A stretch of DNA of 63,938 bases, the filler included. It is 6 parts of 6 records of this genome, joined end to end, with 100 filler letters (N's around TTAATTAATTAA, not from the genome) between each part and the next. Parts side by side here need not be neighbours in the genome. Positions count along the whole stretch, not along the records: positions 55,092 to 63,938 come from SRR20825019_1183; 5 more parts are not named here. The stretch is one strand, 5' to 3'. Shown piece after piece: positions 9,167 to 63,938 of this stretch. Numbering within the stretch: position 1 is the stretch's first letter; each line of letters starts with the position of its first letter. Position numbers and translations under genes: made by a program. A model generated the notes under the pieces. That model made no database searches. It saw only the letters and a program-made list of their open reading frames with translations, and had not been told where the DNA came from.

Positions 9167-9196
9167 CGTGTTTCTCGCTGTGGCTCAATTGTATTT

Positions 9197-9211: not shown

Positions 9212-9276
9212 TTATTGTTTTCTGCATCAAGCGTCAAGCTGCTTGACCAATTTTCACCAAGATGCAAGATCGCCGC

Positions 9277-12500: not shown

Positions 12501-12995
12501 GTTCATAAGGGTGATTTTGCCGCCCTGAAGTTCCAGCCGGTTTAACTTGATAGGTGCTGCGGTTTCAGCCACCTCATCTTCAGCCGGGGCCTCCGGCCAG
12601 CCGCGAAGGCTGATGCTGCCGTTCTCGCGTTCTTCAAGTGTAACCGCCAGACCGTTCAGGCCCAGATGCTGAATATCCAACCCACCCTTCAGGAGCGCCG
12701 AGATACCAAGCCTTGCCTCAATCAGCTCTGCCGTCGCCACAGGCTCGACCACACCATCCTGCATCGGGAACATTCGAACTTGCTCGGCAGACATTGATGG
12801 CCTCGGCAACAAGCCAAGCCGAATATCGCCCGCGAGTTCCACGCGCATGCCGGTTTGCTCTGAAATAAGAGAAGCAAGCCTGCCGCGATACTGATTCCAG
12901 TCAAGAAATCCAACCGCAACGGAAGCTATCACGACCAGCCCGACCAGGCTGCCCACAAGCCATGTAAGGATTTTTGTGATTTTGCCTTTTTTCAT
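9510..12995 (-). CDS. AsmA family protein
   Basis: N-terminal TM helix, DWNQYRGRLASLISEQTG...GLLPRP AsmA N-terminus and a long beta-rich body. Confidence 0.85.
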   Translation of the reverse strand: MKKGKITKILTWLVGSLVGLVVIASVAVGFLDWNQYRGRLASLISEQTGMRVELAGDIRLGLLPRPSMSAEQVRMFPMQDGVVEPVATAELIEARLGISALLKGGLDIQHLGLNGLAVTLEERENGSISLRGWPEAPAEDEVAETAAPIKLNRLELQGGKITLMNADGTTRVFEEIQLDFSGSLPDGPFEWEGGLKTAGQQVTTVGKLRPSREEGVTSVKVEAALAGGLADISGRLDDGSFAGRVQLGGDALGRFVAAATAMGTGTPGSAMLPNEAFELDLQVERTSGVTRVTSRTFKAAETQGRVDLTLAERTGKTHVGGTLSLGIVDLQPWMDAVQQASGSPSTEQASNTAAPPELPVSGSIDVTIEGVRVLDGLIQQVDFALGVGDAGLFVGDAQALFPGATSVNFSGRIGADMRGSGNLNATSGNLQDMLRWLGYDPSGQLAPGRLATADFAGKLELDGSRWLVSNIKSRLDTTNISGGIVGTLNGGWPTNVTLQADNINLDAYLPENKPASAGTAAEPAQKTAELFAMLPESTLRFGFKASAIQWAGQSFRDFSVDAQVANSGVKVNSLTLKGGKGTLQLAAQLRPAGSDIEIDGDAKLADWPMPFVLAVMPDMQPFIRASGMSGFDGSFRLSGPLSNLHLSANASNGEARQIAANGTVAYVADSPLAFDIRGTLKHENLRALASQTGFEINGGAAADLTFSASQKANAPIKMDISGEFAGGQLLAKGEQGESRSTWQVTYDHKRAQAAARKFLPAMTVPNPAQPLRVAANVSLSEGAWALETLDVRNGDAQIAGNVGSDNKSRLYGRLRGSGFVFNNLTGNAANKQPAPAQEGEPFNFEALRGYSGQVDLALEGVTLAGQKVQAPGAALTAGDGLIRLDLGSSALLNGQPVTVAVDLDVSGAPTVQGNIVVKELDIASMLLSEGFGRIADGVASFNFNFNASGETPEAMLGKLRGRGEITGRAGALNFLSVPSLVREMSQASTPTGFLTSIGGFLRQGKTNFAALETRFTLDGGVALVETLSASGPWGALSLDGQVNFSESLMDLKGQLNLTSPQDAPVIPVKYSGSLNNPSTNWTSRALESFVIAGIERRIRTSLFKEQENREATTGEAANNPAGEVFSRAFGFLNNLKKAQEEKKKKEAEAKKAEEEKDGDGT

Positions 12996-13268
12996 TCCAA
13001 TCCTCCGTTGCACGCCACGCGCATCTCCACCGTCAGAGTGCGCAATGAGAACGCTGAATGCAAGTGACCATCCCAAGTATTCACATCAATTAGGCAAGCT
13101 TACGGCGAAAATTCTTAACCTTTTGAATTTCTGACACTAAGCTGCGGAAAAGACACTTGATTTGGGTACCATGATCACCAGAAGAACACCGCAAATAGCT
13201 TTTCATTTGGCAACCACACGGCCCTTTATGGGCGAGACCTGTTTCAGCATGACGAGGAATCGCTAATC

Positions 13269-15077
13269 ATGCCGCAGGAGCATATCAAACGTAACTGGTT
13301 CCAACGGCAACGGCGACGTATCCGAGCCTCGCTTTTTAGCGCAGGCGGATATGAATTTGGCGCCATCACGGCCATAGCGGCCTTGGTTGGCGTGATTGCA
13401 GGCTATGCCGCTATCGGCTTTTACCTGGGCATCGGTGAACTCCTTTTATTCAGCTTTGGCCAAAATGAAGCCGAACTCGCGACAGGCGCAGCTTCTCTAC
13501 CCTGGTACCATCTCATTGCCATTCCGGTTATTGGCGGTCTTGTTGTTGGGCAACTGTTACGTTTTTTGCCCACACACCAAACCCGCGCCGTATCTGACGT
13601 GATTGAAGCGGCGGCCATCCGGGAAGGCAAACTTAACTTCAAGGAAGGTTTTGTAAGCGCAGGAACAACGCTGATTTCTCTGGGCTCTGGCGCATCCCTT
13701 GGCCGCGAGGGGCCGGTTGTGCATATAGGCGCAACACTGGCAGCGGTTGTCACCCGCATATTACACCTCAACCCGTCCATCGCGCGCACCCTGCTTGGGT
13801 GCGGTGTTGCGGCAGCTGTTGCTGCATCTTTCAATGCGCCCATCGCCGGTGTTTTCTTCGCGCTTGAAGTTATTATCGGGCACTATGCCTTGCACGCCTT
13901 CGCCCCTGTGGTGATTTCCGCCATCGCGGGCACACTTATCAGTCGCGCGCATCTTGGCAACTTCCCAGCGTTCCACACAGCCGAATATGCCATCACAAGC
14001 TTTTGGGAGTTTCCCGCGTTTTTCATATTAGGTATCGCATCAGCATTGGCGGCGGTCATTTTCATGTCGGGCCTCGACTGGGCTGACAAAATACGTGGCA
14101 AAATCAGCAAGGTGCCCTATTGGCTTCAACCGGCTATCGCGGGGCTCTGTGTTGGTTTGATCGCGCTTTATTTCCCCGAAGTTCTGAGCGTGGGGTATGA
14201 GGCAACAAGCAAGGCACTAAACGGCGAGTATGGTTTTGAACTGCTAATTTCGCTCGTAATTGCAAAAATGGTTGCCGCCATCATTTGTTATGGCGGCCGG
14301 TTTGGGGGCGGGGTCTTCTCCCCTTCCCTCTTCTTGGGCGCCATGGTTGGCGGCGCGTTTGGCATCGCCGCTGGCGCCGTGTTCCCTGAGCTTGCATCCA
14401 CGCCCGGCCTTTATGCGGTTGTTGGCATGGGGGCCGTAGCATCCGCCGTACTGGGCGCGCCCATTTCAACTATGCTTATCGTGTTTGAGATTACCGGGGA
14501 CTATAATGTCACCATTGCAGTCATGATCGCATCTGCCGTTGCCAGCATGGTCACCAGCACCTTTTATGAGCGATCCTTCTTCCTGATGCAGCTTGCAAAC
14601 CGGGGGATCCGGCTTGAAGGCGGCAAAGCGACCTACCTTTTGAAATCCGCCCGGGTAGCAGATCATATGACACGCGACTTTTTCACCGTGCGCGACACGG
14701 AACCCGCCATCAAGGCGCGTGAGCTTCTCGTTACCCAAGGCGGCGGCATGCTCATAGTCACAAACGAGACCGGTGCCATGGTTGGTGTTCTGAGCTTTGG
14801 CCAACTGCCTGCGGACATTTTTGAAGGCGACACTGCCCGCACCCATATCGTGGGCGAATATATGCGTGACCTTCCACAAACCGTGAAGGCAAACCAACCG
14901 CTTCAAGTCGCGCTGCATAAACTTGATGTCAGCGGGGAGGAAACACTGCCGGTGGTCTCTGCCGACAGCAGCCACACAGTTGTCGGGCTTATCCGGCACC
15001 GCGATGTAATGCAGGAATATAATCGTGCCCTGCTAGAAAGCCAGGGCGGCGACACCCGCCTGCGCCGCCGTGTTTAA
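13269..15077 (+). CDS. ClC chloride channel/transporter with CBS domains
   Basis: GREGP, FNAPIAGVFFALE, GGVFSP and a C-terminal CBS pair. Confidence 0.92.
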   Translation: MPQEHIKRNWFQRQRRRIRASLFSAGGYEFGAITAIAALVGVIAGYAAIGFYLGIGELLLFSFGQNEAELATGAASLPWYHLIAIPVIGGLVVGQLLRFLPTHQTRAVSDVIEAAAIREGKLNFKEGFVSAGTTLISLGSGASLGREGPVVHIGATLAAVVTRILHLNPSIARTLLGCGVAAAVAASFNAPIAGVFFALEVIIGHYALHAFAPVVISAIAGTLISRAHLGNFPAFHTAEYAITSFWEFPAFFILGIASALAAVIFMSGLDWADKIRGKISKVPYWLQPAIAGLCVGLIALYFPEVLSVGYEATSKALNGEYGFELLISLVIAKMVAAIICYGGRFGGGVFSPSLFLGAMVGGAFGIAAGAVFPELASTPGLYAVVGMGAVASAVLGAPISTMLIVFEITGDYNVTIAVMIASAVASMVTSTFYERSFFLMQLANRGIRLEGGKATYLLKSARVADHMTRDFFTVRDTEPAIKARELLVTQGGGMLIVTNETGAMVGVLSFGQLPADIFEGDTARTHIVGEYMRDLPQTVKANQPLQVALHKLDVSGEETLPVVSADSSHTVVGLIRHRDVMQEYNRALLESQGGDTRLRRRV

Positions 15078-16000: not shown

Positions 16001-16100
16001 NNNNNNNNNNNNNNNNNNNNNNNNNNNNNNNNNNNNNNNNNNNNTTAATTAATTAANNNNNNNNNNNNNNNNNNNNNNNNNNNNNNNNNNNNNNNNNNNN
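16001..16100. other. Artificial contig spacer
   Basis: 44 N + TTAATTAATTAA (stops in six frames) + 44 N. Confidence 0.98.
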
Positions 16101-23747: not shown

Positions 23748-23847
23748 NNNNNNNNNNNNNNNNNNNNNNNNNNNNNNNNNNNNNNNNNNNNTTAATTAAT
23801 TAANNNNNNNNNNNNNNNNNNNNNNNNNNNNNNNNNNNNNNNNNNNN
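23748..23847. other. Artificial contig spacer
   Basis: Same N44-TTAATTAATTAA-N44 linker. Confidence 0.98.
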
Positions 23848-34136: not shown

Positions 34137-34236
34137 NNNNNNNNNNNNNNNNNNNNNNNNNNNNNNNNNNNNNNNNNNNNTTAATTAATTAANNNNNNNN
34201 NNNNNNNNNNNNNNNNNNNNNNNNNNNNNNNNNNNN
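34137..34236. other. Artificial contig spacer
   Basis: Same linker. Confidence 0.98.
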
Positions 34237-47440: not shown

Positions 47441-47540
47441 NNNNNNNNNNNNNNNNNNNNNNNNNNNNNNNNNNNNNNNNNNNNTTAATTAATTAANNNN
47501 NNNNNNNNNNNNNNNNNNNNNNNNNNNNNNNNNNNNNNNN
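47441..47540. other. Artificial contig spacer
   Basis: Same linker. Confidence 0.98.
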
Positions 47541-51062: not shown

Positions 51063-54000
51063 TCACTGCGCCGCACGAACCCCAGTACGACCAATGCAGG
51101 CCTCCATTCTCTCAATGAGTCCCAGGACGGCGCCGCTCCTAGACAATTCTTCTTCATTATCCGAGTCAACCAGAACAGCCTGTGCGATCTCATTAGGGGT
51201 GAGAGGCGGATCGTACCAACGGTGGCCTTCGGATCGCGGGGGGCTGGCGACTATGGAACGGCACTTCACCGGACTCTGGTCGGGATTCTTTTGGGTGACC
51301 GGCCGCACGAGCTTGATAGCCTTGCCCACTTGGCTCGCGACCTTCTTGATGGGATACCCGCGTTTCTTGTACACATCCTGCACAGCCTTCGATACCATTT
51401 CCCGCTCAACACCAGACGCCACACCAGTCACTCGCAGGCCGCCGTCATCCGGAATGCCCTCAGCAGGTGTGCTCTTGACCTTCGTCGGCGACACCACTCC
51501 CGCGCGCCTTCTGGGGGTCCCCTTTTCATTTCGGTGTGCGTTGATGCCAGCATGCTCTGGCAGGGGTTCGCGGGCTTCCCGCGCCTTGTTCGTTGCCTCT
51601 CCCTTGCTAAACTGGCGGACTTCCTGTGCAGTGCGCTGGTTCCACACCCTTTTCGCATATCCCATGGATTTTGTGCTGTAGTCGCCAGCATTCGCCTCTA
51701 GCTGCAGATTAGCAACCAATCCACGCTGGATATTAGCGGCAACCTGTTCCTTCTTGCGGGCCGTCGGGTCCGCGGATTTGTGTTGCCTCATCCGGATCCT
51801 CTCCACTGCCGCCGCCACCCGCTTCTCTTGCAGCTTCGCCTGTGCCACTGCCTTCTTGGCATCGGATTCCACAAAATCGACCCCACCGAACGGCTCGCGA
51901 GGCTGCGGATCAGCCGGTGATTCAGGTGGGGAAATGTCTTTCCGCGGGGTGCGTTTCGCTGGCAACGGACGATCCACTTCGCTTGGAATCTTACGTGGGG
52001 GAGGGCGTCGCTCTGGAGGAAGGAACTTAAATCCTTTAGCTACTGATGAAGCAATAGTCTTGAGATCCGAAATGCCGTGCTTGCCGACACTGCCAATGCC
52101 ACCTGACGACTGGCCCTTGCCATGTGATCCATCATCCTGCTTTTCGGATGCCGCTTGGGCGCTTTCACGAATCTTCTGCTTCAACTTCGACATCTCCTCT
52201 TCTCGCTCCTTTGCGCGCCGCTTAACCTCATCCATGATTGCTTTCTCTTTTTCTTTCTGCTCCTTCTTGAATTTTGCCGACTTCTCCTCCCGCTCCTTCT
52301 CCGCCGCAGCGGCAGCAGCCCGTGCTGCCTCCAATTTTTCTTCGCGTTCTTCCTCCAGACGTCTCATCGCTTCAACTTCTCTCTCCTTGCGCAACTTCTC
52401 TTCTTCTCTCGCTTTCTTCAGCTCCTCCTCCCTCCGTTCCCTGGCCTTCTCCGCCTCAGCTTCCTTCAAACGCTGCCGCAACTTATCACGGTTCTCCTCG
52501 AGCTGATCTAGAACATCGAGTAGCTTAGGCCTGCGCGTTTTGCGTTCATGATCGGCACGAATCATGCCCCACTTGGATTTACCCCCCTTCATTCCCAACA
52601 ACGCCCCAGCACTCTTTCCTGAAGTTTGCTGGGATGCCGGTGCATCCACATGTTCCTTCTTTTTCGGGAGATTGTTTCGAGAAAAAGCACTGAGGCCGGC
52701 TTGAACTCCTGCATCCTCGTCCACCTCGAACATCTCATCATCACCGCCATCTTCGTCAGAGGAAGAGTCGTTGGAATCCACATCGTCTAGGTTCGGGAGT
52801 TGCTCCATAATCTCCCGGCCAGTACTCTCGTCACCATTTATCGCCGCGAGCTTCTTGGACAATCTCTCATTCTCTCGCATTAACTTTTCTTGTTCGGCCC
52901 TTCTAGCTTTCTTGAGGCCCTCCCTCTCCTTTTCCTTTTTCATCCGCTTCAGCTCCTGTACAGCAGCCTCCTGGGCCTCCTTCTTCTTCAAAGCTTCGGC
53001 CTTCTTCCGATTGGCCTCTTCGCGCGCCTCCTCCTTCTTTTTCTCCATTGCCAACCTTTCCTTCTCCTGTTTCTTCTTTAGAATCCGCTGACCCAGCGCA
53101 TGCGCTTCGGCAGCTTTTGCGGCTTTCCTCTCGGCTTCTTCCCTCTCGAGTTTTTCTTGGGCAATCTTCGCCAACTTCGCCTGCTCTGCGGCCTCCTTCT
53201 TTGCAATACGCTTTTCCTCTTGCTCTTTCCTCAACTGCTCCTGTCGCTGTTGCGCCTTCGTCAACTTCTTAGGCTTCGGCACGGGGAGGGAAGACTGCAC
53301 ACCCACATCTTCATCAGTTCGGAACATTGACATGTCTCCGCCTTCGAGCTCCGTGGAGGCCGCCCCTTCGTCTTCGGGGGTCTTCCCATTGGACTTCATG
53401 TCTTGCGTGGCAACACCATTCTTCGCAAGAGTCGTAGTAGATTCCAATAAGGCAGCTTCTCGTGCAGTCCTGCGCAAGGCCACTTCCATTTCCATTTTTT
53501 TCTTGTTCTCTAGCTCGGCGTTTCTGGCTTCTTCTCTCAACCTTTGGGCCCGTTGACGTCGCGTCTCAAACTTGGGCCGCATAGAGTCTACAAATACTTT
53601 GATGTCGTGCAATCGGCGATCTTCCTTTTCACGAGCTTGCATTGCTTCTTCCTTTTGTGCCTTCAGTTTTTGCTGCACCGCAGTCTCGTGCCGGCGTGAT
53701 CTTTCATCGAGAACACCCCGCATGATCATTTGCCGGCGCTCAACGACCTTCTCGGGATCAAGGTCGCTGGGTTGCTTCGCTTCAATACGTGGATTAGTTT
53801 TGGTTGGTGCATCATTCTTCCTACCCATAAACATCCCTGCGGGCCCAGCACCGGTCGTATGCTTCATCACATACTCTACCACACAAGCGTGTCCTTGCTG
53901 AAGTGCCACATGCAGAGCCGACACTCCCTCAGAATTTGTGGCGTTAATATCGGCACCAAGGTCGGCCAACCGCGTAAGCTCGACGACATTCCCTTCGTAT

Positions 54001-54980
54001 GCGGCGTTGAGTACGAGTGGCAGCGTGACAGCAGGATCCAGATTCTCGGCCTTCTTTGGGGGATCCATGCGAATCTTTCTAACCGCTTCATCCGCTAAGA
54101 ACTCTGCACGGCGCGGCTCCGCGCCTTCCATCCACTTCTTCTGCTCACGCAACTGACTCTGAACCGACATTAACTCTATTTCTTTGGCGCGTTGTAGGTG
54201 AATGAGTTCCTTTGTTTTCTCTACTGTCGACCAATGCACACGCTGCGGACGGTACACAAACAAAGGCCCCCTTCCATCCATGTCTTCCTGCTCTAGGTAG
54301 TCTATAGGTTGGCAGCCGTATTCGTTATCTGTGTCGCCCCCACGAGCAAGCCTCTGCGCCTCTAGGAGTTCGAGGTAGTCTTCTCTCAAGTCGTCTTCAA
54401 GGTCGCTTGGAATGGCATCTCCATCTGGATCCAGCTCTGTGCCATCCTCCATAGCTTCGACATCGCGGAAAGCTGATGTCCGCACAGGTGAACCAGACCA
54501 AGATTCCAGGCAGTTCCGCTCTTCGACCTTTGCCTTCATGTGAGACAGGTCGGTGTAGGCGCTAACCCTTACACTATCAGGGGTAGGAGATGTTACAGAC
54601 ACGGTCCCAGTTGGATCAAGATAGAGCGCATCCCCAGGTTGCGGCTCGTCTTCTGGGTCTGCAGGCTTCTTTGCCCATGCAGGCTGGGGTGGGGCCGGCA
54701 CCCATTCCCCTCTAGCATGCCGCCGAACTGCTTGCACGCCAGTGTCTTCATCACAGGTGAAATCCAAGCCCTCGCAATCATCGTCCCCCGTATTCAAATC
54801 CCGTTCGAATTCCCCAAGCATCAGTTTTGCTGCACTCGACCCTTCTCCTCGCCGCCCATTACTCGTCGTAGGGACTACATTCCCTGTTACCCTGGGCACG
54901 ACTTTTCCTTTGCCGCTGAATAGCCCACCCATCTTCCCCAACATAGCATTCTTCGCGTTGATGTCTCCTACCATGGGCAC
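51063..54980 (-). CDS. Large eukaryotic protein exon with ankyrin repeats and charged coiled coils (open at contig edge, probably spliced further)
   Basis: 1305 stop-free codons. LNAAYEGNVVELTRLADLGADINATNSEGVSALHVALQQGH ankyrin pair and E/K/R-rich helices. Confidence 0.8.
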   Translation of the reverse strand: MPMVGDINAKNAMLGKMGGLFSGKGKVVPRVTGNVVPTTSNGRRGEGSSAAKLMLGEFERDLNTGDDDCEGLDFTCDEDTGVQAVRRHARGEWVPAPPQPAWAKKPADPEDEPQPGDALYLDPTGTVSVTSPTPDSVRVSAYTDLSHMKAKVEERNCLESWSGSPVRTSAFRDVEAMEDGTELDPDGDAIPSDLEDDLREDYLELLEAQRLARGGDTDNEYGCQPIDYLEQEDMDGRGPLFVYRPQRVHWSTVEKTKELIHLQRAKEIELMSVQSQLREQKKWMEGAEPRRAEFLADEAVRKIRMDPPKKAENLDPAVTLPLVLNAAYEGNVVELTRLADLGADINATNSEGVSALHVALQQGHACVVEYVMKHTTGAGPAGMFMGRKNDAPTKTNPRIEAKQPSDLDPEKVVERRQMIMRGVLDERSRRHETAVQQKLKAQKEEAMQAREKEDRRLHDIKVFVDSMRPKFETRRQRAQRLREEARNAELENKKKMEMEVALRRTAREAALLESTTTLAKNGVATQDMKSNGKTPEDEGAASTELEGGDMSMFRTDEDVGVQSSLPVPKPKKLTKAQQRQEQLRKEQEEKRIAKKEAAEQAKLAKIAQEKLEREEAERKAAKAAEAHALGQRILKKKQEKERLAMEKKKEEAREEANRKKAEALKKKEAQEAAVQELKRMKKEKEREGLKKARRAEQEKLMRENERLSKKLAAINGDESTGREIMEQLPNLDDVDSNDSSSDEDGGDDEMFEVDEDAGVQAGLSAFSRNNLPKKKEHVDAPASQQTSGKSAGALLGMKGGKSKWGMIRADHERKTRRPKLLDVLDQLEENRDKLRQRLKEAEAEKARERREEELKKAREEEKLRKEREVEAMRRLEEEREEKLEAARAAAAAAEKEREEKSAKFKKEQKEKEKAIMDEVKRRAKEREEEMSKLKQKIRESAQAASEKQDDGSHGKGQSSGGIGSVGKHGISDLKTIASSVAKGFKFLPPERRPPPRKIPSEVDRPLPAKRTPRKDISPPESPADPQPREPFGGVDFVESDAKKAVAQAKLQEKRVAAAVERIRMRQHKSADPTARKKEQVAANIQRGLVANLQLEANAGDYSTKSMGYAKRVWNQRTAQEVRQFSKGEATNKAREAREPLPEHAGINAHRNEKGTPRRRAGVVSPTKVKSTPAEGIPDDGGLRVTGVASGVEREMVSKAVQDVYKKRGYPIKKVASQVGKAIKLVRPVTQKNPDQSPVKCRSIVASPPRSEGHRWYDPPLTPNEIAQAVLVDSDNEEELSRSGAVLGLIERMEACIGRTGVRAAQ

Positions 54981-54991: not shown

Positions 54992-55091
54992 NNNNNNNNN
55001 NNNNNNNNNNNNNNNNNNNNNNNNNNNNNNNNNNNTTAATTAATTAANNNNNNNNNNNNNNNNNNNNNNNNNNNNNNNNNNNNNNNNNNNN
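54992..55091. other. Artificial contig spacer
   Basis: Same linker. Confidence 0.98.
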
Positions 55092-55092
55092 G

Positions 55093-56106
55093 CCGCTGCG
55101 GGCCGGCAAGGTGGTGATCACCACTGGGGCCCGCCCTGCCCTGCCGTCGATCCCCGGCATCGAGGAGGTGTCCTATCTCACCAGCACCACGGTGCTCGAG
55201 ATCGCAGAGCTGCCGCGATCGCTGCTCATCATCGGCGGCGGTTATATCGGCTGCGAGCTGGCACAGCTCTTCGCGCGCGCCGGCGTCGAGGTGACGATCG
55301 CCTGCCGCCGCGGCCTGCTGCCGGCGGCCGAGCCGGAGGTCGGCACCGCCCTCACCGGGTACTTCGAGGATGAAGGCATCCGCGTGCGAAGCGGGCTCAA
55401 ATACCGCCAGATCCGTGAGACGGAAGACGGCGTGATCCTGAACGCGCTCGCGGAGGGCAACGACGTACGCCTCGAGGCAGAGCGGGTCCTGATCGCCAGC
55501 GGCCGACGACCGAACACGGAGGAGATGGGCCTCGCCGAGGCAGGCGTTGTCCTGTTACCGAACGGCGGCATCGAGGTCGACGAACGCCTGCGCACGACGA
55601 AGGCCGGCATCTACGCCGCCGGCGACGTCACTGGCCGCGACCAGTTCGTCTACATGGCCGCCTATGCTGCCCGGCTCGCGGCGGAGAACGCGCTCAACGG
55701 CGACAGCCGGCGCTACGACAACGCGGCGATGCCGGCGGTCGTGTTCACCGATCCCCAGGTCGCCAGCGTCGGCCTGACCGAGGCCGCGGCGGGCCAGGCC
55801 GGCCACCGGGTCAAGACCTCTCTCCTGTCGCTCGACCAGGTGCCTCGCGCGTTGGCAGCGCGCGACACGCGCGGCCTGATCAAGCTCGTGGCGGAGGAGG
55901 AGACGGACCGGCTGCTCGGCGCGCACATTCTCGCGCCCGAAGGCGCCGACAGCATCCAGACGGCCGTTCTCGCCATCAAGCACGGACTCACGGTCGCCGA
56001 GCTTGCGGAGACGATCTTCCCCTATCTCACAACGGTCGAGGGCCTGAAGCTCGCCGCCCAGACGTTCACGCGCGACGTGGCCAGGCTTTCCTGCTGCGCG
56101 GGGTAA
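55093..56106 (+). CDS. merA: Mercuric reductase, 5'-truncated
   Basis: DQFVYMAAY, VFTDPQVA, FPYLTTVEGLKLAAQTF and C-terminal LSCCAG. Confidence 0.95.
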   Translation, partial: PLRAGKVVITTGARPALPSIPGIEEVSYLTSTTVLEIAELPRSLLIIGGGYIGCELAQLFARAGVEVTIACRRGLLPAAEPEVGTALTGYFEDEGIRVRSGLKYRQIRETEDGVILNALAEGNDVRLEAERVLIASGRRPNTEEMGLAEAGVVLLPNGGIEVDERLRTTKAGIYAAGDVTGRDQFVYMAAYAARLAAENALNGDSRRYDNAAMPAVVFTDPQVASVGLTEAAAGQAGHRVKTSLLSLDQVPRALAARDTRGLIKLVAEEETDRLLGAHILAPEGADSIQTAVLAIKHGLTVAELAETIFPYLTTVEGLKLAAQTFTRDVARLSCCAG

Positions 56107-56114
56107 CGGGGGCC

Positions 56115-56330
56115 ATGGAGACCGGCGACAAGGTCCTGGCGTTGCTCGGTGCGAAGGTGCTCTGCTGCGTCGCGCTGGTTCTCGCCGCCACCGGTGTCCT
56201 GGGAGGGTTTGGCGCCTGGCTGATCGACGGTGCCGGAGGGTGGCTCGTTGCCGGCCTGATCGTTGCGGCCATCGTGGCGCTCATGCTCGGACGCCGACAG
56301 GAGCGGACGAAGACGCGCCATCCCGGATGA
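56115..56330 (+). CDS. Small two-TM protein with a vicinal Cys pair (Mer transporter-like)
   Basis: AKVLCCVALV in the first hydrophobic segment, starting 8 bp after merA. Confidence 0.65.
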   Translation: METGDKVLALLGAKVLCCVALVLAATGVLGGFGAWLIDGAGGWLVAGLIVAAIVALMLGRRQERTKTRHPG

Positions 56331-56398
56331 GGCATCCTATATGAGGCGACAGGAACCTGCCGCTACGCGCCCCGTTTTCGACTCAGGACGAGAATAGG

Positions 56399-57751
56399 AT
56401 GACCCAACGTTTCGACCTGGTGGTAATCGGCACCGGCACCGCCGCAAGCGGCGTAGCGAGCCGCTGTCGCAATGCTGGCTGGTCGGTGGCCATTGTCGAC
56501 GAACGCCCCTTTGGCGGGACCTGCGCGTTGCGCGGCTGCGATCCTAAGAAGGTGCTGCGACGCACGGCCGAGGTGGTGGATGCCGCGCGACTCATGAACG
56601 GACACGGAATCACTGGTCCCGCCCCCACCGTAGATTGGCCCGCCCTCATGGCCTTCAAGCGGAGCTTCACCGATCCGGTCCCCAATGCGCGGGAAAAGGC
56701 CTTCGCGGACAAAGGCATCGCCACCTTCAAGGGTACAGCGCAGTTTATTGGCGAAAACACGATTTCCGTCGGCGAGGACCGGCTCGAAGCCCGATACATC
56801 GTGATCACAAGCGGGGCGAAGCCGGTGCCGCTCTCCATGCCCGGTGCCGAGCACGTCATCACCAGCGACGACTTTCTGGAGCTGGAGGCGCTGCCGAAAC
56901 GTGTGCTTCTGATCGGCGGCGGGTACGTTTCCTTCGAGTTCGCCCATATCGCCGCACGCGCCGGTGCCGAGGTGGTCATGGTCGACCGGGGCGAACGGCC
57001 GCTCAAGGCGTTCGATCCCGACCTCGTCGACATGCTGGTCGACCGCACGCGGGCCCTCGGCATCACCTTCCGCGCCAAGGCCGAAGTGACGGCGATCGAG
57101 CAGGCGAACGGCGGGCTTGGCGTCATTGCCAGGATCGACGGCGCCGAAGAGCGGTTCGAGGCGGACCTCGTCGTGCACGGCGCCGGCCGGGCCGCGGCGA
57201 TCAGCGCGCTGGAGCCCGACAAGGCGAACGTCAAGGCGGACGGTACGGGCGTCGAGGTCAACGAGTATCTGCAGAGCCTCACGAACCCGGCGGTCTATGC
57301 CGCCGGCGACGCCGCGGCGACAGCGGGGCCGCCGCTCACGCCGGTCGCCAGCCTGGAGGCCAAGGCGGTGGCGGCGAACCTGTTGGAAGGAAACCACGCC
57401 ACGCCCGACTACACCGGCGTGCCGAGCGCCGTGTTCACCGTTCCCGAATTGGTGCGTGTCGGTCTGAGCGAAGCCGACGCAACGGCGCAGGGCCTCGAAT
57501 TCGAATGCAAATTCTCAGACATGCGGGGCTGGTTCTCCGTCCGTCGCGTCGGAGAAACCCACGCCGCGGCGAAAGTGCTGGTCGAGCACGGATCGGGACG
57601 GATCCTTGGCGCGCACATCCTCGGGCCGGAAGCGAGCGAGACCATCAACCTCTTCGGCCTCGCCATGCGCACCGGGCTAAAGGCGGAAGACCTCAAGGGC
57701 CTGGTCAGCGCCTATCCGTCGGCAGGCTCGGATATCGGCTCTCTGATCTGA
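56399..57751 (+). CDS. Pyridine nucleotide-disulfide oxidoreductase (glutathione reductase-like)
   Basis: GGTCALRGCDPKK redox disulfide, GGGYVSFE and YAAGD. C-terminal YPS, no CC tail. Confidence 0.9.
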   Translation: MTQRFDLVVIGTGTAASGVASRCRNAGWSVAIVDERPFGGTCALRGCDPKKVLRRTAEVVDAARLMNGHGITGPAPTVDWPALMAFKRSFTDPVPNAREKAFADKGIATFKGTAQFIGENTISVGEDRLEARYIVITSGAKPVPLSMPGAEHVITSDDFLELEALPKRVLLIGGGYVSFEFAHIAARAGAEVVMVDRGERPLKAFDPDLVDMLVDRTRALGITFRAKAEVTAIEQANGGLGVIARIDGAEERFEADLVVHGAGRAAAISALEPDKANVKADGTGVEVNEYLQSLTNPAVYAAGDAAATAGPPLTPVASLEAKAVAANLLEGNHATPDYTGVPSAVFTVPELVRVGLSEADATAQGLEFECKFSDMRGWFSVRRVGETHAAAKVLVEHGSGRILGAHILGPEASETINLFGLAMRTGLKAEDLKGLVSAYPSAGSDIGSLI

Positions 57752-57890
57752 CGCCGCGCTCGTCATGGTCTGAGACAGGCGCAAAGCCTTCCACGGCGCT
57801 GGAAGCGCTTCCCAGGTCGATGTAGCGTTCCTGACCGGCTTCCCGACGGAATAACCACCGTCTCTCCTTTCCCGGCACGACTCCGATCCC

Positions 57891-57922
57891 TTGACTCTGT
57901 ACCGTGGTACGGAGCGTAGGCT
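57891..57922 (+). promoter_or_regulatory. MerR-type promoter/operator
   Basis: TTGACT-20 bp-TAGGCT enclosing the dyad TCTGTAC-CGTG-GTACGGA. Confidence 0.85.
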
Positions 57923-57947
57923 TCAATGAGCGATCGAGGTGAGAGAC

Positions 57948-58406
57948 ATGATTGGCATGACCATCAGCAGGGCCGCGCAGGCGGCCGGCGTTGGCGTCGA
58001 GACGGTCCGCTTCTACGAGCGCAAGGGCCTGATCGAGCAGCCCCCGAAGCCCGCCGCCTCAGGCTTTCGGAGCTATCCCGACGAGACCATCGAACGCATC
58101 CGCTTCATCCGGCAGGCGCAAGAGCTGGGCTTCTCGTTGCGCGAGGTCCGGGAGCTCCTGGAGCTGCGCGCCGATCCCGAGGCGGATGCGGCCGACGTCC
58201 GGGCCCGGGCTACGGCGAAGCTCGACGACGTGAACGAGAAGATGCGCCAGCTCCAGCGCATCGGACAGGCCTTGGAGGCACTGATCGCGTCTTGTCCCGG
58301 CCACGGCGAGCTCGGCTGCTGCTCGATCATGGAGGCGCTGGAAGGTCACCAAAAGGCGGACGTCGGGGCCACGGAAGCCGTTGATACAAAGCCAAGATCA
58401 GGATGA
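57948..58406 (+). CDS. MerR-family metal-responsive regulator
   Basis: GVGVETVRFYERKGLI, RFIRQAQELGFSL and metal loop CPGHGELGCC. Confidence 0.93.
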   Translation: MIGMTISRAAQAAGVGVETVRFYERKGLIEQPPKPAASGFRSYPDETIERIRFIRQAQELGFSLREVRELLELRADPEADAADVRARATAKLDDVNEKMRQLQRIGQALEALIASCPGHGELGCCSIMEALEGHQKADVGATEAVDTKPRSG

Positions 58407-59155
58407 CGGAGCTCCTTGCGCAGTTTCAGGCGCTTCCGGCGATCTCCCTCGCGGCCTTCGCGCTGGTGGCGGCCGCCGGCCTGCTCATGGGCTTGGCCCC
58501 GAGCTCGGTGCCGCTGGCCTCGGTGGTCGTCGGCTCGGTCGCCGGGCGTGGAACCGGGGAGACCGCACCGACGGCGCGTCGGGGGCTCCTGTTCGCCGGC
58601 GGGTTCGTGCTCGGCATCGCCACGGTGGATGCCGCCATCGGCGGGCTGTTCGGATTCGTCGGCGACGCCGTCATCCGCGTGCTCGCCGGCTCCCTGGCGA
58701 TCACGAACCTCGTGCTTGCGGGCCTGCTGGTGGCCATGGGCCTCGCGCTCCTGAGAGTCATCCATGTGCCGTGGCTGCGGCTACAGGCACGGCCGCGCGA
58801 GGTGAGTTCGTTCGGCGGCGCCTACGCGCTGGGCATCCCCTTCGGGCTCTCCACCTGCCCCGCCTGCACGCCGATGGTGCTTCCCGTCCTCGGCGCCGCA
58901 GCAGCAACCGGCGAGGCCTGGGTCGGCGCGGCGCTGCTCTTCACCTTCGGCATCGCGCGCGGCGTGCCGCTGCTGATCGCCGGGGCGGCGACCGGGGCAG
59001 CGATGCGCCTGCATCGCGCGGCATTCTGGGCGCCCCGCATCGAGCGCGCCGGCGGCGTGCTGCTCCTGTTGGCGGCCCTCTACTTCCTCTACGAGGGCGC
59101 GGCGGCCACCGGCGCGGTGCCGCCGCTGGAATTCCTCCTGGCGGACCTGACGTAA
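58403..59155 (+). CDS. CcdA/DsbD-beta-like membrane protein
   Basis: Six to seven TMs, GLAPSSVP, GLSTCPACTP and FGIARGVPL. Confidence 0.82.
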   Translation: MTELLAQFQALPAISLAAFALVAAAGLLMGLAPSSVPLASVVVGSVAGRGTGETAPTARRGLLFAGGFVLGIATVDAAIGGLFGFVGDAVIRVLAGSLAITNLVLAGLLVAMGLALLRVIHVPWLRLQARPREVSSFGGAYALGIPFGLSTCPACTPMVLPVLGAAAATGEAWVGAALLFTFGIARGVPLLIAGAATGAAMRLHRAAFWAPRIERAGGVLLLLAALYFLYEGAAATGAVPPLEFLLADLT

Positions 59156-59169
59156 AAAGGAAAACCTCC

Positions 59170-59388
59170 ATGAACACGACGACCTTCAGGATCGATGGCA
59201 TGCACTGCGACGGCTGCGCCGATCGCATCCGGACACTTCTGGGCAAGGAGCCGGGGGTCCGCGAGGCGCGCGTTTCCTTCGCGGAAGGAGCGGCGGCTGT
59301 CCGCTTCAACCCCCATTCGGTGAGCGAGGCTCGGCTTCGCGAGGTCATCGAGACGGGCGGTTTCAATGTGGTCGAGATGACGGCGTGA
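59170..59388 (+). CDS. HMA-domain metal chaperone (CopZ-like)
   Basis: IDGMHCDGC, 72 aa, no signal peptide. Confidence 0.92.
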   Translation: MNTTTFRIDGMHCDGCADRIRTLLGKEPGVREARVSFAEGAAAVRFNPHSVSEARLREVIETGGFNVVEMTA

Positions 59389-60065
59389 CGGAGTTCGAGC
59401 TTCTGAACCTGGTGCTGCTGCCGATTGGGCTCGGGCTGCTCGGCTTCGTCGAGCCGTGCTCGATCGGCTCGAGCCTCGTTTTCGTCAAGTACCTGGAGGG
59501 CAAGGACAGGCTTGCCAAGCTGTCGCAGCTCACGGTCTTCGCGCTGACGCGCGGCGTCTTCATCGGTTTGCTCGGGGCAGCAGCGGCCGGGATCGGCACG
59601 GCCTTCCTCGGTTTCCAGAAAGCCGCCTGGATCGTGCTTGGCACGATCTATACCGCGATCGGCCTGTTCTACTTGGCGGGAAAGGCCGGGTTCCTGATGC
59701 GGACGATCGGACCGCGTCTCTCCGCCCTCTCGGGCGGCAGAGGCTCCGCGACCCTCGGCCTGCTGTTCGGACTCAACATCCCGGCCTGCGCGGCACCGCT
59801 CATCTTTGCGCTGTTCGGCGCCGCGGCGGCGGGCGGCGCGGCCGGGCGGCCAATCACCAATGGCTTCGTCTCGCTCGGACTGTTCGGCCTGGCGCTGTCG
59901 CTGCCGCTGGTGCTGGCCGCCGCGTTTCAGCCGGCGCGCCGGGCGCTCGACTGGCTCGCCGGCCTGTCGCGCCGCATCCCCGTCTGGACCGGCTTGGTGC
60001 TGATCGTCCTCGGCGCGTGGTCGATCTGGTTCGGGTTGTTCGTGAACCTGGAGGACTGGACATGA
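59385..60065 (+). CDS. Second CcdA-like membrane protein
   Basis: GFVEPCSIG, GLNIPACAAP and FGLALSLPL. Confidence 0.82.
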   Translation: MTEFELLNLVLLPIGLGLLGFVEPCSIGSSLVFVKYLEGKDRLAKLSQLTVFALTRGVFIGLLGAAAAGIGTAFLGFQKAAWIVLGTIYTAIGLFYLAGKAGFLMRTIGPRLSALSGGRGSATLGLLFGLNIPACAAPLIFALFGAAAAGGAAGRPITNGFVSLGLFGLALSLPLVLAAAFQPARRALDWLAGLSRRIPVWTGLVLIVLGAWSIWFGLFVNLEDWT

Positions 60066-61531
60066 TGGCATGCACGCGCGCTTTCCGCGCCACAGTCGCG
60101 GTCGCCGCCGGCGTGGTGATCGCCTCGACCGCGGGCGCTCCCTCCATCAGAGCCGCCGACGACGTCCATTACGGACCGGATACCGTCGACATCGCGGCCC
60201 ATTGGGCGGCGCGCGCGACCCTCGCCAACGCGGTGATGTTCAGCGGCCTGGGAGAGCCGCTCTCGATCTCCATGTCGACGGCCGACGACATCCTGAAGCA
60301 TGCAGGTTACATTGCCCGGCCCCCGATGCCCGACATGGCCACCGTCGGGGCCGTTTATGCCGCCGGAAGCCCGGCGCTGAAACAGACGCCCGACTTCTCG
60401 GATTTGCAGACATTGCGGTGGGGTCCCGCGAGCTTCGACCGGACGCTGGAGCCGGCCGCCCAGGCCTGGGCGCTGATCAAGATCACCAGCCCGGCGTTCC
60501 ACCTCAACTTCCATGACGACAAGGCGGACAGGCGCGTCGCGCTGATGATGCTGCCGCAAGCCCGGGCGCAGGCCGAGGTCCTGGCGGAGCGGCTTCTCAC
60601 CGGCCCGGGCCTGTTCGCGGCCCGTTCTTCGGACGGCACCTTCGCCGAACCCCGCGCCCACGACCAGGCCGTGGTGTTGTGGGGTGTGTCCAACCTGATC
60701 CTCGCCGCGACGAGCGAGCGCGAGGACTACTGGCACACGGCCTGGCGCGAGCTCGTCGACGCCGGCGATTATCGCGAGCTGTCGGACCGCGCCCTCGCGG
60801 CCGTCGAGCAGTTGCCGCCCAACACCCCCCGGGACCAAGCCCTGGCGATCGAGGCGCTGGGCCGCTACGCGCTCGCCACGAACGACGCGCAACGCCGCGA
60901 AAAAGCCCTGACGCTGGCACGTCGCCACGCCAACGCGCTGACGCAGGTACGGAATGTCTCGCTGAGCGATGCCGCGCTTGCCGTCTACGGCCTCGTCGAG
61001 GCCGGCCGGCTGCTGCGGGATGACGGGTTCGCGAAGGCAGCGGCCACCGCATTCGAGACCGGGCTGCTTCCGAAGTGGGACGACCGGCTCGGCGCGTTCC
61101 GCACGGACGAGCCCGTCAGCTATACGCCGTCCATCACGGCCGCCGTCGTGGCAGCGCTGAATGCGATGCGCTGGCACGGCTCGGGCGATCTCGCGAAGGA
61201 AGCAAACCGCCTTTATCCGGGGTTTCTCGAAACGGTTCTGGTCGATGCGAGACTGCAGCTCGCGAGCCCGCTGCCGCTGGTCCCGGCCCGCTACCGCGAG
61301 GGCTGGCCCGATACGGCCTTCGCGCATCCGGCGCTGCCGACACCGGAGAAAGCCGGCCTCGCACCGGTCTTCGCCGGCGAGGTCGTACACGAGAACGGGA
61401 CGTGGCGCGTCTCCGATCGCCGCTTTCGCACGGCAGACGCGATGTTCCTCGCCAACATGCTGGTGATGCCGCACGAGGGACAGGCCGACACGTTCCTGCC
61501 CGCGAACCGGCTCGAGAGCCTCGACAGATAG
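60062..61531 (+). CDS. Exported hypothetical protein (489 aa)
   Basis: ATG overlaps the upstream stop, signal-peptide-like N-terminus, no family recognised. Confidence 0.78.
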   Translation: MMACTRAFRATVAVAAGVVIASTAGAPSIRAADDVHYGPDTVDIAAHWAARATLANAVMFSGLGEPLSISMSTADDILKHAGYIARPPMPDMATVGAVYAAGSPALKQTPDFSDLQTLRWGPASFDRTLEPAAQAWALIKITSPAFHLNFHDDKADRRVALMMLPQARAQAEVLAERLLTGPGLFAARSSDGTFAEPRAHDQAVVLWGVSNLILAATSEREDYWHTAWRELVDAGDYRELSDRALAAVEQLPPNTPRDQALAIEALGRYALATNDAQRREKALTLARRHANALTQVRNVSLSDAALAVYGLVEAGRLLRDDGFAKAAATAFETGLLPKWDDRLGAFRTDEPVSYTPSITAAVVAALNAMRWHGSGDLAKEANRLYPGFLETVLVDARLQLASPLPLVPARYREGWPDTAFAHPALPTPEKAGLAPVFAGEVVHENGTWRVSDRRFRTADAMFLANMLVMPHEGQADTFLPANRLESLDR

Positions 61532-61540
61532 GAGAAGGAC

Positions 61541-63938
61541 ATGGCCGAAGCCATCGCGCAACAGGCACGGGACCGGGGCATCGAGAGCCTGCAACTCAAG
61601 ATCGGGGGCATGAGCTGCTCGTTCTGCACGAACGCGATCGAGCGCGGACTCCGCCGCGAGAAGGGCATCGAGGAGGTGCATGTCTCCCTCGCCCACGAGG
61701 AGGCCCTGGTGCGGTTCCGGTCGGACGAGACCGACGAGACGCGGATCAAGGACACGTTGCGCGCCCTCGGCTTCATCGTGCGCGACCCGCGCAAGGTCGG
61801 CGGCTTCGACGAGCAACTCGACCTCAAGCGCAAGGAGCGCAACGACCTGATCTCGGCGGCGAGCCTCGCCCTTCTCATGTTCTGCGCGATGGCCGCCATG
61901 TGGCTCGGCCTCTGGCAGATGCAGGACTGGCACGCCTGGACGGCGTGGGCGTTCGCCACTTACACCTTCGGCTGGAACGGCCGGCGCATCATCCGTATGG
62001 CGTGGGGCGCCGCGTGGCGCGGCATCACCAACCAGCACGTGCTGCTCTCGGTCGGCGCCATCGGCGCCTATATCGGCGGCCTCCTCGGCGCCCCGCTACC
62101 GTTCCTCGGCTGGTACGGCTTCGTCGGGTTCCCGCCCGTCGACTTCTTCGGCGTGGTGGTGTTCCTGACCACCTATCACTTGCTGTCCGGCTACGTCTCG
62201 CTCGTGGTGCGCACGAAGGCGTCGGAGAGCGTGCGCCGGCTCCTGGAGATGCAGCCACCGACGGCCCGGGTTGTTCGCGACGGCCGGGAAGAGGACGTCG
62301 CGATCGACGAGGTCGCGATCGACGACCGCGTCCGCGTGCGCCCCGGCGACCGCATCCCGGTGGACGGCACGGTGGAGGACGGCACGTCGGCGGTCGACCA
62401 GTCGATCGTCACGGGCGAGCCGATCCCCGAGGAAAAGAAGCAGGGCGACGAGGTGATCGGCGGCAGCGTCAACCAGACCGGCACGCTGCTCATCCGCGTC
62501 ACCCGCACCGGCGAGGACAGCTTCCTGCGCCAGGTCGCGCGCCACGTCGAAGAGGCGAAGGCGATGAAGCCGGGGATCATCGTCCTGGTCGACCGGGTGC
62601 TGCTCTACTACGTCCCGGCGGTGCTCGGGATATCGGCGGCGGCGCTCCTGTTCTGGGGCTTTGCGCCGCTGGCCTGGGGCGGCGCCATGCAGTGGGTCAC
62701 GGCGATCTATGCCGCGGTCACGGTGCTCGTGATGGGCTATCCCTGCGCACTGGGCATGGCGACGCCGCTGGCGCTGATCCGTGGTGGCGGCATGGCGGCC
62801 GAGCGCGGCATCCTGATGCGCTCGGGCGAGGCGTTTCAGATCCTCAAGGACATAACCCATGTCGTGCTCGACAAGACCGGCACGCTCACCGAGGGCAAGC
62901 CGCGGCTCGTCGCCGCCGAGGCAGTCGGTGATTTCGGCCGGGACGAGGTCCTGCGCCTGGCTGCGGGCACCGAGTCGGCCTCGGAACATCCGCTTGCCAG
63001 CGCCATCGTCGACGGCGCGGTGGAACAGGGGCTCGAGATACCGCAAGCGCGCGACTTCCAGGCAACGGCCGGGCAGGGCGTCGAGGCGACCGTCGCGGGG
63101 CGCCGGGTCCTGGTCGGCACGACCCGCTTCCTGCGCGCGAGCGGGGTCGACGTCGCGCCGGCAGAAGAGATGCTCGACCGGCACGAGGCACAGGCGCACA
63201 CCGCCGTGCTTGTCGCGGTCGACGGGGTGGTCGCCGGGGTGCTCGCGATCGCCGACGCGGTCAAGCCGGACGCGAGGGATGCCATCGCGGAGCTCAAGGG
63301 GCGCGGCATCACGCCGGTCATGCTGACCGGCGACAACGAACGCACCGCCAGGGCCGTCGCCGGTCAGGTCGGTATCGAAGAGGTCCATGCCCAGATCGTG
63401 CCGCAGGACAAGGCAGCGCGGGTCCGCGCGCTCCAGGAGCAAGGCGCGCAGGTCGCCATGGTCGGCGACGGCATCAACGACGCGCCGGCGCTGATGCAGG
63501 CGCATGTCGGCATCGCCATCGGCGCGGGCACCGACATCGCGATCGAGTCCTCCGATGTCGTGCTGATCGGCGAACGCCTCGGCGCCGTGCCGGAGGCGAT
63601 CACGATCGGCGGCATGAGCTATCGCAAGACGGTGCAGAACCTGTGGCTCGCGTTCTTCTTCAACGGCGTCGGCGTGCCGCTCGCGGCCACCGGGGTCGTG
63701 CATCCCTCCTGGGCCATGGCCGCCATGGCCGCCAGCGTCACCCTCGTGCTCGCCAACTCGTTCGGCGGGCAGGTCTTCACGCGCGGCAAGGCGCGGACAG
63801 ATCACGTGCCGGAACATCCCAGGCAGGCCCCCGAGGAAAGCCGGAATACTCCTGACACCAATGGTTCGGAGCTCAGGCTCTCGGTGCCGAGCATTCACTG
63901 CCAGGGCTGCATCGAGACCATCGAAGCCAACCTGCGGC
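61541..63938 (+). CDS. Heavy-metal P1B-type ATPase, runs off the window end (not in ORF track)
   Basis: Manual translation: N-terminal [32 protein letters not shown] and a further HMA motif IHCQGC near the end. Confidence 0.95.

Follow-up and report, generated by a model that had tools for sequence, protein, structure and literature searches.

A conserved operon under MerR control pairs a P1B pump of an undescribed subclade with an undescribed exported protein

The 63,938-nucleotide (nt) stretch of DNA analysed here (the window) carries near its end a six-gene cassette encoding a MerR-family metal sensor (MerR2), two membrane proteins related to CcdA (CcdA-like 1 and CcdA-like 2), a small HMA protein, an exported protein and a P1B-type ATPase (Table 1). 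The cassette is a MerR-controlled P1B-pump operon with an undescribed pump subclade, recognized by YPC in place of CPC in the transmembrane signature, and an undescribed exported partner. It is real and conserved, its recurrence in 28 loci being beyond chance, and its core, composed of CcdA-like 2, the exported barrel protein and the YPC ATPase, is conserved over alpha- and gammaproteobacteria. Operator, sensor and gene neighbourhood point to a switch of the mercury type, and the pump, by its ancestry, points to transport chemistry of the Cu(I) type, less one thiolate. A mercury role of the cassette is probable; that the six genes form one MerR-activated accessory mercury-handling module on a mobile mercury-resistance island is a fuller proposal, to which an even chance is given. 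Textbook mercury resistance consists of uptake and reduction (MerT/MerP, then MerA) and, to our knowledge, no dedicated mercury pump has been established. Full-text searches of Creative Commons-licensed PubMed Central (PMC) papers and bioRxiv returned no description of the cassette, nor a link between YPC pumps and mercury.

Organization, operator and recurrence of the cassette

The first-pass annotation of this DNA had placed one MerR-type promoter before six co-directional genes, and this was read in the sequence in every part: all six open reading frames (ORFs) are present on the plus strand at the places given there, with overlaps at 58403 (ATGA), 59385 (GTGA) and 60062 (ATGA) and gaps of 14 nt between the CcdA-like 1 and HMA genes (ATG at 59170) and of 9 nt between the genes of the exported protein and the ATPase. 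The dyad CTGTAC-CGTG-GTACGG (CTGTAC-N4-GTACGG) sits inside the 20-nt spacer of the promoter, and a scan for standard sigma-70 promoters with a 16-18-nt spacer found nothing in the region, as expected of a long-spacer MerR promoter. A terminator-like hairpin at 57845-57862, between the upstream gene and the promoter, parts the unit from that gene. Six such hairpins were seen against 2.3 ± 1.5 expected; the others all lie within coding sequence and were set aside as chance occurrences.

The symmetrical sequence bound by Tn501 MerR is given as CCGTACATGAGTACGG, CCGTAC-ATGA-GTACGG (PMC11049809). The dyad of the window agrees with it at 11 of 12 half-site bases and has a centre of equal length, 4 nt. 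A consensus, TTGACTCCGTAC-N4-(G/A)TACGGAG, precedes the regulator gene in 18 of 20 related loci, and a looser form of the pattern in 20 of the 28 loci related to the cassette, in 5 of 80 metagenome loci with YPC pumps and in none of 40 control loci with CPC-type CopA (718 kb).

The synteny search that had been suggested for the gene set found the same parts in 28 related loci, comprising 27 genome loci and one plasmid locus and centred on the exported protein. The ATPase gene follows directly after that of the exported protein in all 28, and CcdA-like 2 stands directly before the exported protein in 23 of the 25 judgeable loci (one partial; three contigs too short). MerR2 is present in 20 of the 28 loci and CcdA-like 1, located before the core, after the pump or divergently, in 13; the HMA protein is encoded either by a free gene (9/28) or as a fusion to the regulator (6/28). 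MerA occurs within 9 kb in 12 loci, in at least six differing arrangements, and any of MerA, MerT and MerF in 14. All nine of the MerA proteins tested exceeded the TIGR02053 cut-off, with 493.7-556.7 bits, and the three others are near-duplicates of tested ones. Five genomes lacking a MerA close by were searched as a whole, and in three of them a MerA above the cut-off lies at another place, once about 9 kb downstream and apparently on the same contig.

The part of the window that contains the cassette is 99.989% identical over 8847 nt, one base apart, to positions 4031-12877 of locus L007, contig15 of Thalassospira profundimaris WP0211, in which the ATPase gene cut at the window end is complete. 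Upstream of the cassette, L007 carries a classical mer unit with a divergent MerR1, MerT, MerF and a full MerA (TIGR02053 542.7 bits, cut-off 454.45). The first-pass annotation had put the cassette downstream of merA, which the merA fragment at 55111-56106 bears out; as a statement of mere position it fell short, the adjacency to merA not being incidental. The operator of MerR1 differs from that of MerR2 (CTGTAG-N3-CTACAG), and the mer unit and the cassette are therefore taken to be separately controlled. The whole 8.8 kb was also found in a Tepidicaulis isolate (91.7% identity) and in a metagenome-assembled genome (MAG) of Rhodobiaceae (91.8%), for the cassette portion, a further alphaproteobacterial MAG and the gammaproteobacterium Litchfieldella show 81-84% identity, and a Leisingera plasmid has the same parts in a different order; from this distribution it follows that the unit is mobile. 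In the nearest genome compared (G001), the cassette is absent and only short P-type ATPase matches were found. Contigs of relatives about 90-95% identical were present in four metatranscriptome runs from three studies, a record of presence only, given that assembled contigs may include DNA; in one run (X2), a single 8136-nt contig covers 55761-63815, which likewise indicates presence and not co-transcription, and gaps in such coverage carry no meaning.

The YPC pump, its clade and the regulator

The full ATPase of L007 has 846 amino acids (aa) and two HMA domains, the second of them C-terminal. It contains the core motifs DKTGTLT, TGEP, SEHP and GDGINDAP and matches the Pfam families E1-E2_ATPase, Hydrolase and HMA. 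The usual signature of CopA (P1B-1) is CPC / YN(x)4P / M(x)2SS. The pumps of the cassette lack it: all 20 clade members examined carry YPC / FN(x)4P / M(x)2SV, and none of the 20 has CPC, YN or SS. The ZntA model NF033775 gave 369.4 bits against a cut-off of 1240, and with no CPC the protein falls outside the P1B-2 ZntA/CadA group. A single published result concerns a pump likened to the YPC clade by description, the metagenomic CopAL6 (Li et al. 2022, PMC11082258), which bears YPC in its metal-binding helix and an HMA domain at either end; its expression in E. coli ΔcopA made the cells less resistant to copper and brought their copper content up to 534.5 µg/g. As far as the likeness by description carries, this datum argues against a simple copper exporter. 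A review mentions an uncharacterised Rhodobacter P1B pump without the typical motifs and describes the P1B pumps of established direction as exporters (PMC7558416).

By sequence, the YPC ATPases form a wide, unstudied clade that reaches far beyond the six-gene cassette. Metagenome contigs scanned with a back-translated motif (11 protein letters, not shown) yielded at least 120 stretches and 80 loci with flanks, 25 of which are well flanked, with ≥2.5 kb on both sides. Beside the YPC pump were found a MerR2-like regulator in 46 of the 80 loci (15 of the 25 well-flanked ones), an HMA protein in 36 (18), a CcdA-like protein in 22 (9), the exported barrel protein in 5 (3) and MerA in 10 (7). MerA exceeds the NCBIfam cut-off in 9 of the 10 MerA-linked loci; the tenth, L084, which belongs to the same island as the window, was counted on a phmmer match to the L007 MerA (894 bits), and a truncated, sub-cut-off MerA fragment in L062 was left uncounted. 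The MerA-linked contigs range in GC from 0.42 to 0.71 and include L103, with MerR, MerA and ATPase genes on one strand, L092, in which the MerA gene overlaps the pump gene, and L045 (6783-11426; GC 0.42), where the YPC ATPase gene and the genes merA and merB, the latter for an alkylmercury lyase (Pfam 81.7 bits), converge. Nearby, L045 also encodes HxlR regulators, a thioredoxin and a DUF7482 protein. A DUF6610 protein (about 262-265 bits) adjoins the YPC ATPase and MerA in L098 (1-885) and L110 (9728-10798), and the regulators of these two loci are of the ArsR type, not the MerR type.

For comparison, 40 loci of canonical CPC-type CopA (±9 kb) from 40 alphaproteobacterial genomes were picked from 130 pattern matches, far from contig starts. 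MerA, MerT or MerF, and the exported barrel protein were each found in 0 of the 40, a CcdA-like protein in one and a MerR-family regulator in 18. With the 25 well-flanked YPC loci set against these 40, one-sided Fisher tests gave p = 0.0007 for MerA and p = 0.0005 for CcdA-like proteins, values that overstate the case because each set has its own source collection and the loci within them are related to one another. The regulators differ sharply: of those near YPC pumps, 44 of 49 have Cys at position 79, whereas 14 of 16 near CPC pumps have Ser79 and a C-x7-C loop, as in the aligned CueR. Residue 79 tells sensors of divalent metals (Cys) from those of monovalent metals within the MerR family.

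MerR2 combines an N-terminal winged-helix domain with the MerR dimerisation/DNA-binding helix (Pfam). Its closest solved structure in a search of PDB sequences was Tn501 MerR (5crl, E 4e-25), compared with CueR (1.3e-22), Bacillus MerR (5.2e-22), PbrR (5.3e-16), CadR (5e-15) and ZntR (6.9e-13). NCBIfam scores of 127.5 bits for MerR (TIGR02051) and 118.3 for CueR are each below their own cut-off. The classical MerR1 of the same island also stays below the MerR cut-off (136.7 bits), which is therefore regarded as strict for this lineage. The C-x8-C spacing of the C-terminal loop is common to all 20 relatives in the alignment and to the Tn501 MerR aligned with MerR2, and 13 of the 20 have Cys at the first-ligand position of Bacillus MerR. 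The six sequences of the window's own clade have Ala at the first-Cys position, and five of them a CC pair in the loop. In six relatives, namely L017 (7546-8217), L019, L024, L029, L030 and L031, the C-terminus of MerR2 is fused to a complete HMA domain. A classification of MerR2 as CueR/GolS-like, for its CPG loop and Ala79, was considered and given up in view of the operator, the PDB matches and the sensors found beside other pumps. Behind the ATPase gene of L007 comes a third MerR-family gene (13097-13594, just past the window end), which also occurs in L005, L006, L008 and L084, and divergently in L047; it has the Cys pattern CPSRHP; CSGDGCGC, and its top NCBIfam match is CadR-PbrR at 81 bits, below the cut-off.

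The accompanying proteins and the surrounding sequence

The first-pass annotation had paired efflux with transmembrane thiol relays, of which at most CcdA-like 2 can be retained. In CcdA-like 1, the Cys of transmembrane helix 1 (TM1) is replaced, with APSS for the canonical SPC, and TM4 contains CPAC; both features are invariant in 9/9 members. To judge from these residues, CcdA-like 1 cannot act as a canonical TM1-TM4 disulfide relay. CcdA-like 2 had no Pfam match in 15 of 16 members, and its profile found no match among PDB sequences. Its alignment with a canonical DsbD_TM protein (BLASTP E 3e-14, 31% identity) spans the whole protein, such that its Cys residues in TM1 (EPCS) and TM4 (PACAAP) coincide with SPCV and TPCIGP of the canonical member, and hhalign related it to CcdA-like 1 with a probability of 94.9%. 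Its model has a predicted local distance difference test (pLDDT) score of 68.9, and Foldseek found nothing in the PDB at E ≤ 0.001, CcdA (5vkv) being third at E 0.24. Among the CcdA-like proteins, a weak resemblance to permeases of the ArsG family (E 5.7e-05) points as much to a permease function as to a redox one. A thioredoxin-like domain was found in none of the six products with Pfam and NCBIfam, and hence no thioredoxin-fold client or donor is encoded alongside. The CcdA-like genes of the cassette are distinct from the canonical DsbD_TM (CcdA) genes, with both relay Cys, that lie a few kb upstream of a classical mer operon in L017 (3288-3941) and L024 (394-1116). The small HMA protein, with the motif GMHCDGC, is probably a cytoplasmic metallochaperone, a location assigned because it has no signal sequence and because the equivalent domain is fused to the regulator C-terminus in six relatives.

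The exported protein has at least 152 homologues at E ≤ 0.001 (8,000 candidates scored). Its AlphaFold2 model (pLDDT 91.2) is of high quality except for residues 1-31, which score below 50, and the N-terminus looks like a signal sequence; the mature part contains no Cys. The predicted fold is an (α/α)6 barrel, with mannose isomerase (5x32, Z 26.0) and cellobiose 2-epimerase (4z4j, Z 25.9) as top matches, aligned over about 321 residues at a root-mean-square deviation of 2.8-3.1 Å and 10-12% identity. Foldseek gave 7tem (YPO2471, an exported protein of Yersinia) at E 6e-06 and 5x32 at E 7e-06, and the look-alikes in the ESM Atlas belong to unnamed clusters only. H147, H151, H225 and H422 are invariant in the family, as are residues of the types Asp, Arg, Trp and Tyr. 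Two Met motifs, PMPDM and LMML, are conserved. In L030/L031 (9043-12058), L044 (5240-8471) and L023 (10505-12958), the genes of the exported protein and/or the ATPase are split into two to three frame pieces, which may be decaying copies or sequencing frameshifts.

That almost every member departs from its family, as had been claimed from the sequence alone, holds, with Ala and the CC pair in the regulator, the lost TM1 Cys of CcdA-like 1, CcdA-like 2 without a Pfam match, an exported protein without a family and an ATPase with YPC, FN and MxxSV. The accompanying suggestion of co-evolution was abandoned, the deviations being family traits common to many loci and not peculiar to this one.

The window consists of six contigs joined by five linkers of the form N44-TTAATTAATTAA-N44, and no feature can be read across the joins. 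The cassette lies entirely within the last piece, 55092-63938 (8,847 nt), which has a GC of 0.688 compared with 0.54-0.62 for the other five. Of the genes that precede the cassette there, the 71-aa peptide with the CC pair is kept at 92% in L005/L006, and relatives of the flavoenzyme adjoin the cassette in L019/L029 and YPC ATPases in L071, L073, L084 and L114. A 1305-aa ORF on the minus strand at 51063-54980, very rich in Lys, Glu and Arg and with long coiled-coil-like stretches, looks unlike its neighbours and unlike typical bacterial proteins.

Table 1. Positions of the cassette genes, the promoter, the context genes and the linkers in the window.
Feature	Position	Strand	Basis
MerR-type promoter: TTGACT (57891-57896), 20-nt spacer, TAGGCT (57917-57922)	57891..57922	+	Sequence reading
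MerR-family metal sensor MerR2, first gene	57939..58406 (alternative ATGs 57948, 57957)	+	Pfam MerR-DNA-bind 68.4, MerR_1 63.0, MerR 34.7 bits
CcdA-like 1 (CcdA/DsbD-fold membrane protein)	58403..59155	+	Pfam DsbD_TM 60.1 bits, DsbD_2 41.7 bits
Small HMA protein (GMHCDGC)	59170..59388	+	Pfam HMA 54.6 bits
CcdA-like 2 (divergent membrane protein)	59385..60065	+	BLASTP to canonical DsbD_TM protein; hhalign
Exported 489-aa protein, no described family	60062..61531	+	No Pfam/NCBIfam match; AlphaFold2 model
P1B ATPase, YPC for CPC, N-terminal HMA and start of C-terminal HMA	61541..63938, cut by window end	+	TIGR01525 570.5 bits
merA 3' part, truncated by contig start (context gene)	55111..56106	+	TIGR02053 MerA 395 bits over 331 aa
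71-aa membrane peptide with CC pair (context gene)	56115..56330	+	ORF; no Pfam/NCBIfam match
Glutathione-reductase/MerA-like FAD disulfide oxidoreductase without C-terminal Cys pair (context gene)	56399..57751	+	Pyr_redox_2 175.6 bits; under all NCBIfam cut-offs
Linkers	16001-16100, 23748-23847, 34137-34236, 47441-47540, 54992-55091		

Mercury handling, its rivals and known systems

The first-pass annotation had spoken of a soft-metal handling system. A conserved metal cassette it is; the metal need not be left unspecified, as operator, sensor and neighbourhood point to mercury. In the proposed accessory module, binding of Hg(II) to MerR2 would switch the unit on, and the small cytoplasmic HMA protein, together with the two HMA domains of the pump, would gather thiol-bound Hg(II). 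The YPC ATPase would then carry Hg(II) across the inner membrane and out of the cytoplasm, an outward direction that is assumed solely from the general rule for P1B pumps. The membrane site of the pump has one Cys fewer than that of CopA, with C to Y in CPC and Y to F in YN, which could make release of a thiophilic ion feasible. The CcdA-like proteins may relay metal or reducing power via membrane-embedded Cys residues, the CPAC of the first and the TM1/TM4 pair of the second, and the Cys-free periplasmic (α/α)6 barrel would receive or process what arrives outside.

Several observations weigh against a mercury module of this kind. Outward pumping of Hg(II) is at odds with the uptake that MerT/MerP/MerF, encoded a few kb upstream, would serve, and a second MerR with a different operator on the island fits separate inducers as well as it fits a modular origin. 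The MerR2 of the window has Ala where the first MerR Cys would be, and its 127.5 bits are below the NCBIfam MerR cut-off of 150.85. The exported protein, being free of Cys, is a poor Hg(II) ligand, and in fold it belongs with sugar isomerases and glycosidases. No MerA lies within 9 kb in 16 of the 28 loci, and in two MAGs, counted among the five genomes considered above, no MerA above the cut-off was found anywhere. The YPC and control sets come from different collections and their loci are not phylogenetically independent. The pump itself is closest by sequence to Cu(I)-transporting CopA (A. fulgidus 3j09, 450.7 bits, versus 307.9 for ZntA 4umv) and passes the NCBIfam cut-off for the copper subfamily (TIGR01511, 471.2 > 397).

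These last scores, with a further 417.3 bits to CopA of L. pneumophila (3rfu), are also where the case for efflux of Cu(I), Ag(I) or Au(I) begins, according to which a diverged CopA/CopZ/CueR-like set is merely riding on the mercury island. The free HMA protein scores as CopZ-like, the regulator of the window lacks Cys79 and starts its loop with CPG as in CueR, and the Met motifs PMPDM and LMML are conserved in the exported protein, such motifs being common among periplasmic Cu(I)/Ag(I) binders. This explanation is nonetheless considered unlikely. CPC, YN and SS are altered in 20/20 pumps, CueR-type regulators accompany CPC pumps (14/16) whereas Cys79 marks those near YPC pumps (44/49), the operator is of the mer type and absent from the 40 CopA loci, and both MerA and CcdA-like genes are enriched beside the YPC pumps. 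CopAL6, a YPC pump likened to the clade by description, did not rescue ΔcopA (PMC11082258). Efflux of Cd(II), Pb(II) or Zn(II) by a pump of the ZntA, CadA or PbrA kind under a PbrR-like sensor is held to be very improbable. PbrR, CadR and ZntR are clearly weaker matches to MerR2 than MerR, ZntA is a weaker match to the pump than CopA, the operator is mer-type, and the recurrent neighbour is MerA and not czc or cad genes. In its favour are the Cys79-type sensors near YPC pumps, typical of divalent-metal MerR proteins, the C-x8-C spacing, which is also that of PbrR, the 20-nt spacer, which resembles the zntA promoter, and a score of 376 bits with TIGR01512 (cut-off 313.5).

The logic of mer, uptake followed by reduction, lends itself to another explanation, in which the pump would drive ATP-dependent uptake of Hg(II) or an organomercurial for MerA/MerB; the barrel would serve as a receptor in the periplasm, and the CcdA-like proteins would carry the metal on thiol pairs in the manner of MerT. 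MerA and a YPC pump with no MerT/MerF homologue detected (MerC, MerE and MerH not having been searched for) occur in L103, L092, L045, L042, L110 and L098, MerB is present in L045, and a single-Cys site would suit one-coordinate RHg+. CopAL6, likened by description, raised metal content and sensitivity (PMC11082258). Uptake is thought improbable all the same: P1B pumps of established direction export (PMC7558416), MerT and MerF are already present on the island of the window, two of the five cassette-bearing genomes have no MerA above the cut-off, and the exported protein lacks Cys. A similarly slim chance is accorded to envelope protection in place of metal export, whereby metal loading or reducing power would be delivered to the periplasm so that the barrel enzyme repairs or remodels an envelope damaged by thiophilic metals. 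The barrel shares its fold with isomerases and glycoside hydrolases and contains His, Asp, Arg, Trp and Tyr residues that are invariant, both relay Cys are kept in CcdA-like 2, and some P1B pumps serve metalloprotein assembly (PMC7558416). The barrel is, however, found in just 5 of 80 YPC loci, which makes it an add-on to the pump and not the pump's reason for being, no thioredoxin-like partner is encoded, and the canonical relay appears impossible for CcdA-like 1.

A bolder extension of the mercury module, distinctly unlikely though a shade less so than uptake or envelope protection, would make the YPC P1B ATPases the missing dedicated mercury pumps of bacteria, with a single-Cys site that binds and releases Hg(II)-thiolate or RHg+; the marine branch, with its barrel and CcdA-derived carriers, would be a full trans-envelope route, possibly inward and feeding MerA/MerB. 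An inward route of this kind, if true, would be an ATP-driven mercury uptake system. A P1B clade with an altered metal site, mercury-type sensors and MerA neighbours in unrelated lineages makes bacterial mercury pumping, and its direction, testable, and a culturable, non-pathogenic marine isolate, T. profundimaris WP0211, carries the locus. The locus also lets one ask, on natural material, how metal selectivity is set by the number of thiolate ligands in a P1B site, and it offers two membrane proteins, derived from CcdA and unstudied, whose Cys motifs are metal-style, and an exported protein family of at least 152 members. YPC pumps are at present annotated generically or as copper pumps, and surveys of mercury cycling that count merA and merB alone would miss them.

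The composition of the cassette is unlike that of the classical mer, cop/cue, gol, znt and pbr operons, in agreement with the first-pass annotation. It resembles the Tn501/Tn21 mer operon in that MerR2 is nearest to Tn501 MerR, the half-sites and 4-nt spacing of the operator are near-identical, the promoter has a long spacer, and the cassette is frequently linked physically to merA, merT and merF. Unlike Tn501/Tn21 mer (merR, merO/P, merT, merP, merA), its genes encode a P1B ATPase, two CcdA-like proteins, an HMA protein and a barrel, MerR2 is a co-directional first gene and not a divergent one, the spacer has 20 and not 19 nt, and Ala is at the first-Cys position. With the CueR-CopA-CopZ system it shares the combination of a MerR-family regulator, an HMA chaperone and a pump whose best sequence relatives are CopA proteins, of which A. 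fulgidus CopA has metal-binding domains at both ends. It differs from that system in YPC, FN and M-x2-S-V, in a non-CueR sensor and another operator, and in its neighbours, MerA and the barrel being absent from the 40 CopA control loci and a CcdA-like protein occurring in 1/40.

The two membrane proteins are DsbD_TM homologues, as are the CcdA/DsbD/ScsB transporters, and CcdA-like 2 has the TM1 and TM4 Cys; Scs is a copper-tolerance system. Unlike these transporters, CcdA-like 1 is without a Cys in TM1 and carries CPAC in TM4, and the cassette includes no gene for a periplasmic client of the thioredoxin kind. A CcdA-like protein of mycobacteria is annotated as a mercury transport protein in a table of a review (PMC12195606). 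CopAL6 shares with the cassette pump, by description, the YPC trimer and HMA domains at both ends; unlike the latter, it is known only as a synthetic metagenomic gene tested for copper, with neither operon context nor mercury test (PMC11082258). The modelled fold of the exported protein is like that of the (α/α)6 barrels of the AGE superfamily (5x32, 4z4j) and YPO2471 (7tem), from which the protein is set apart by 10-12% identity to AGE members, the lack of a family-model match, its periplasmic location and its fixed place beside a metal pump.

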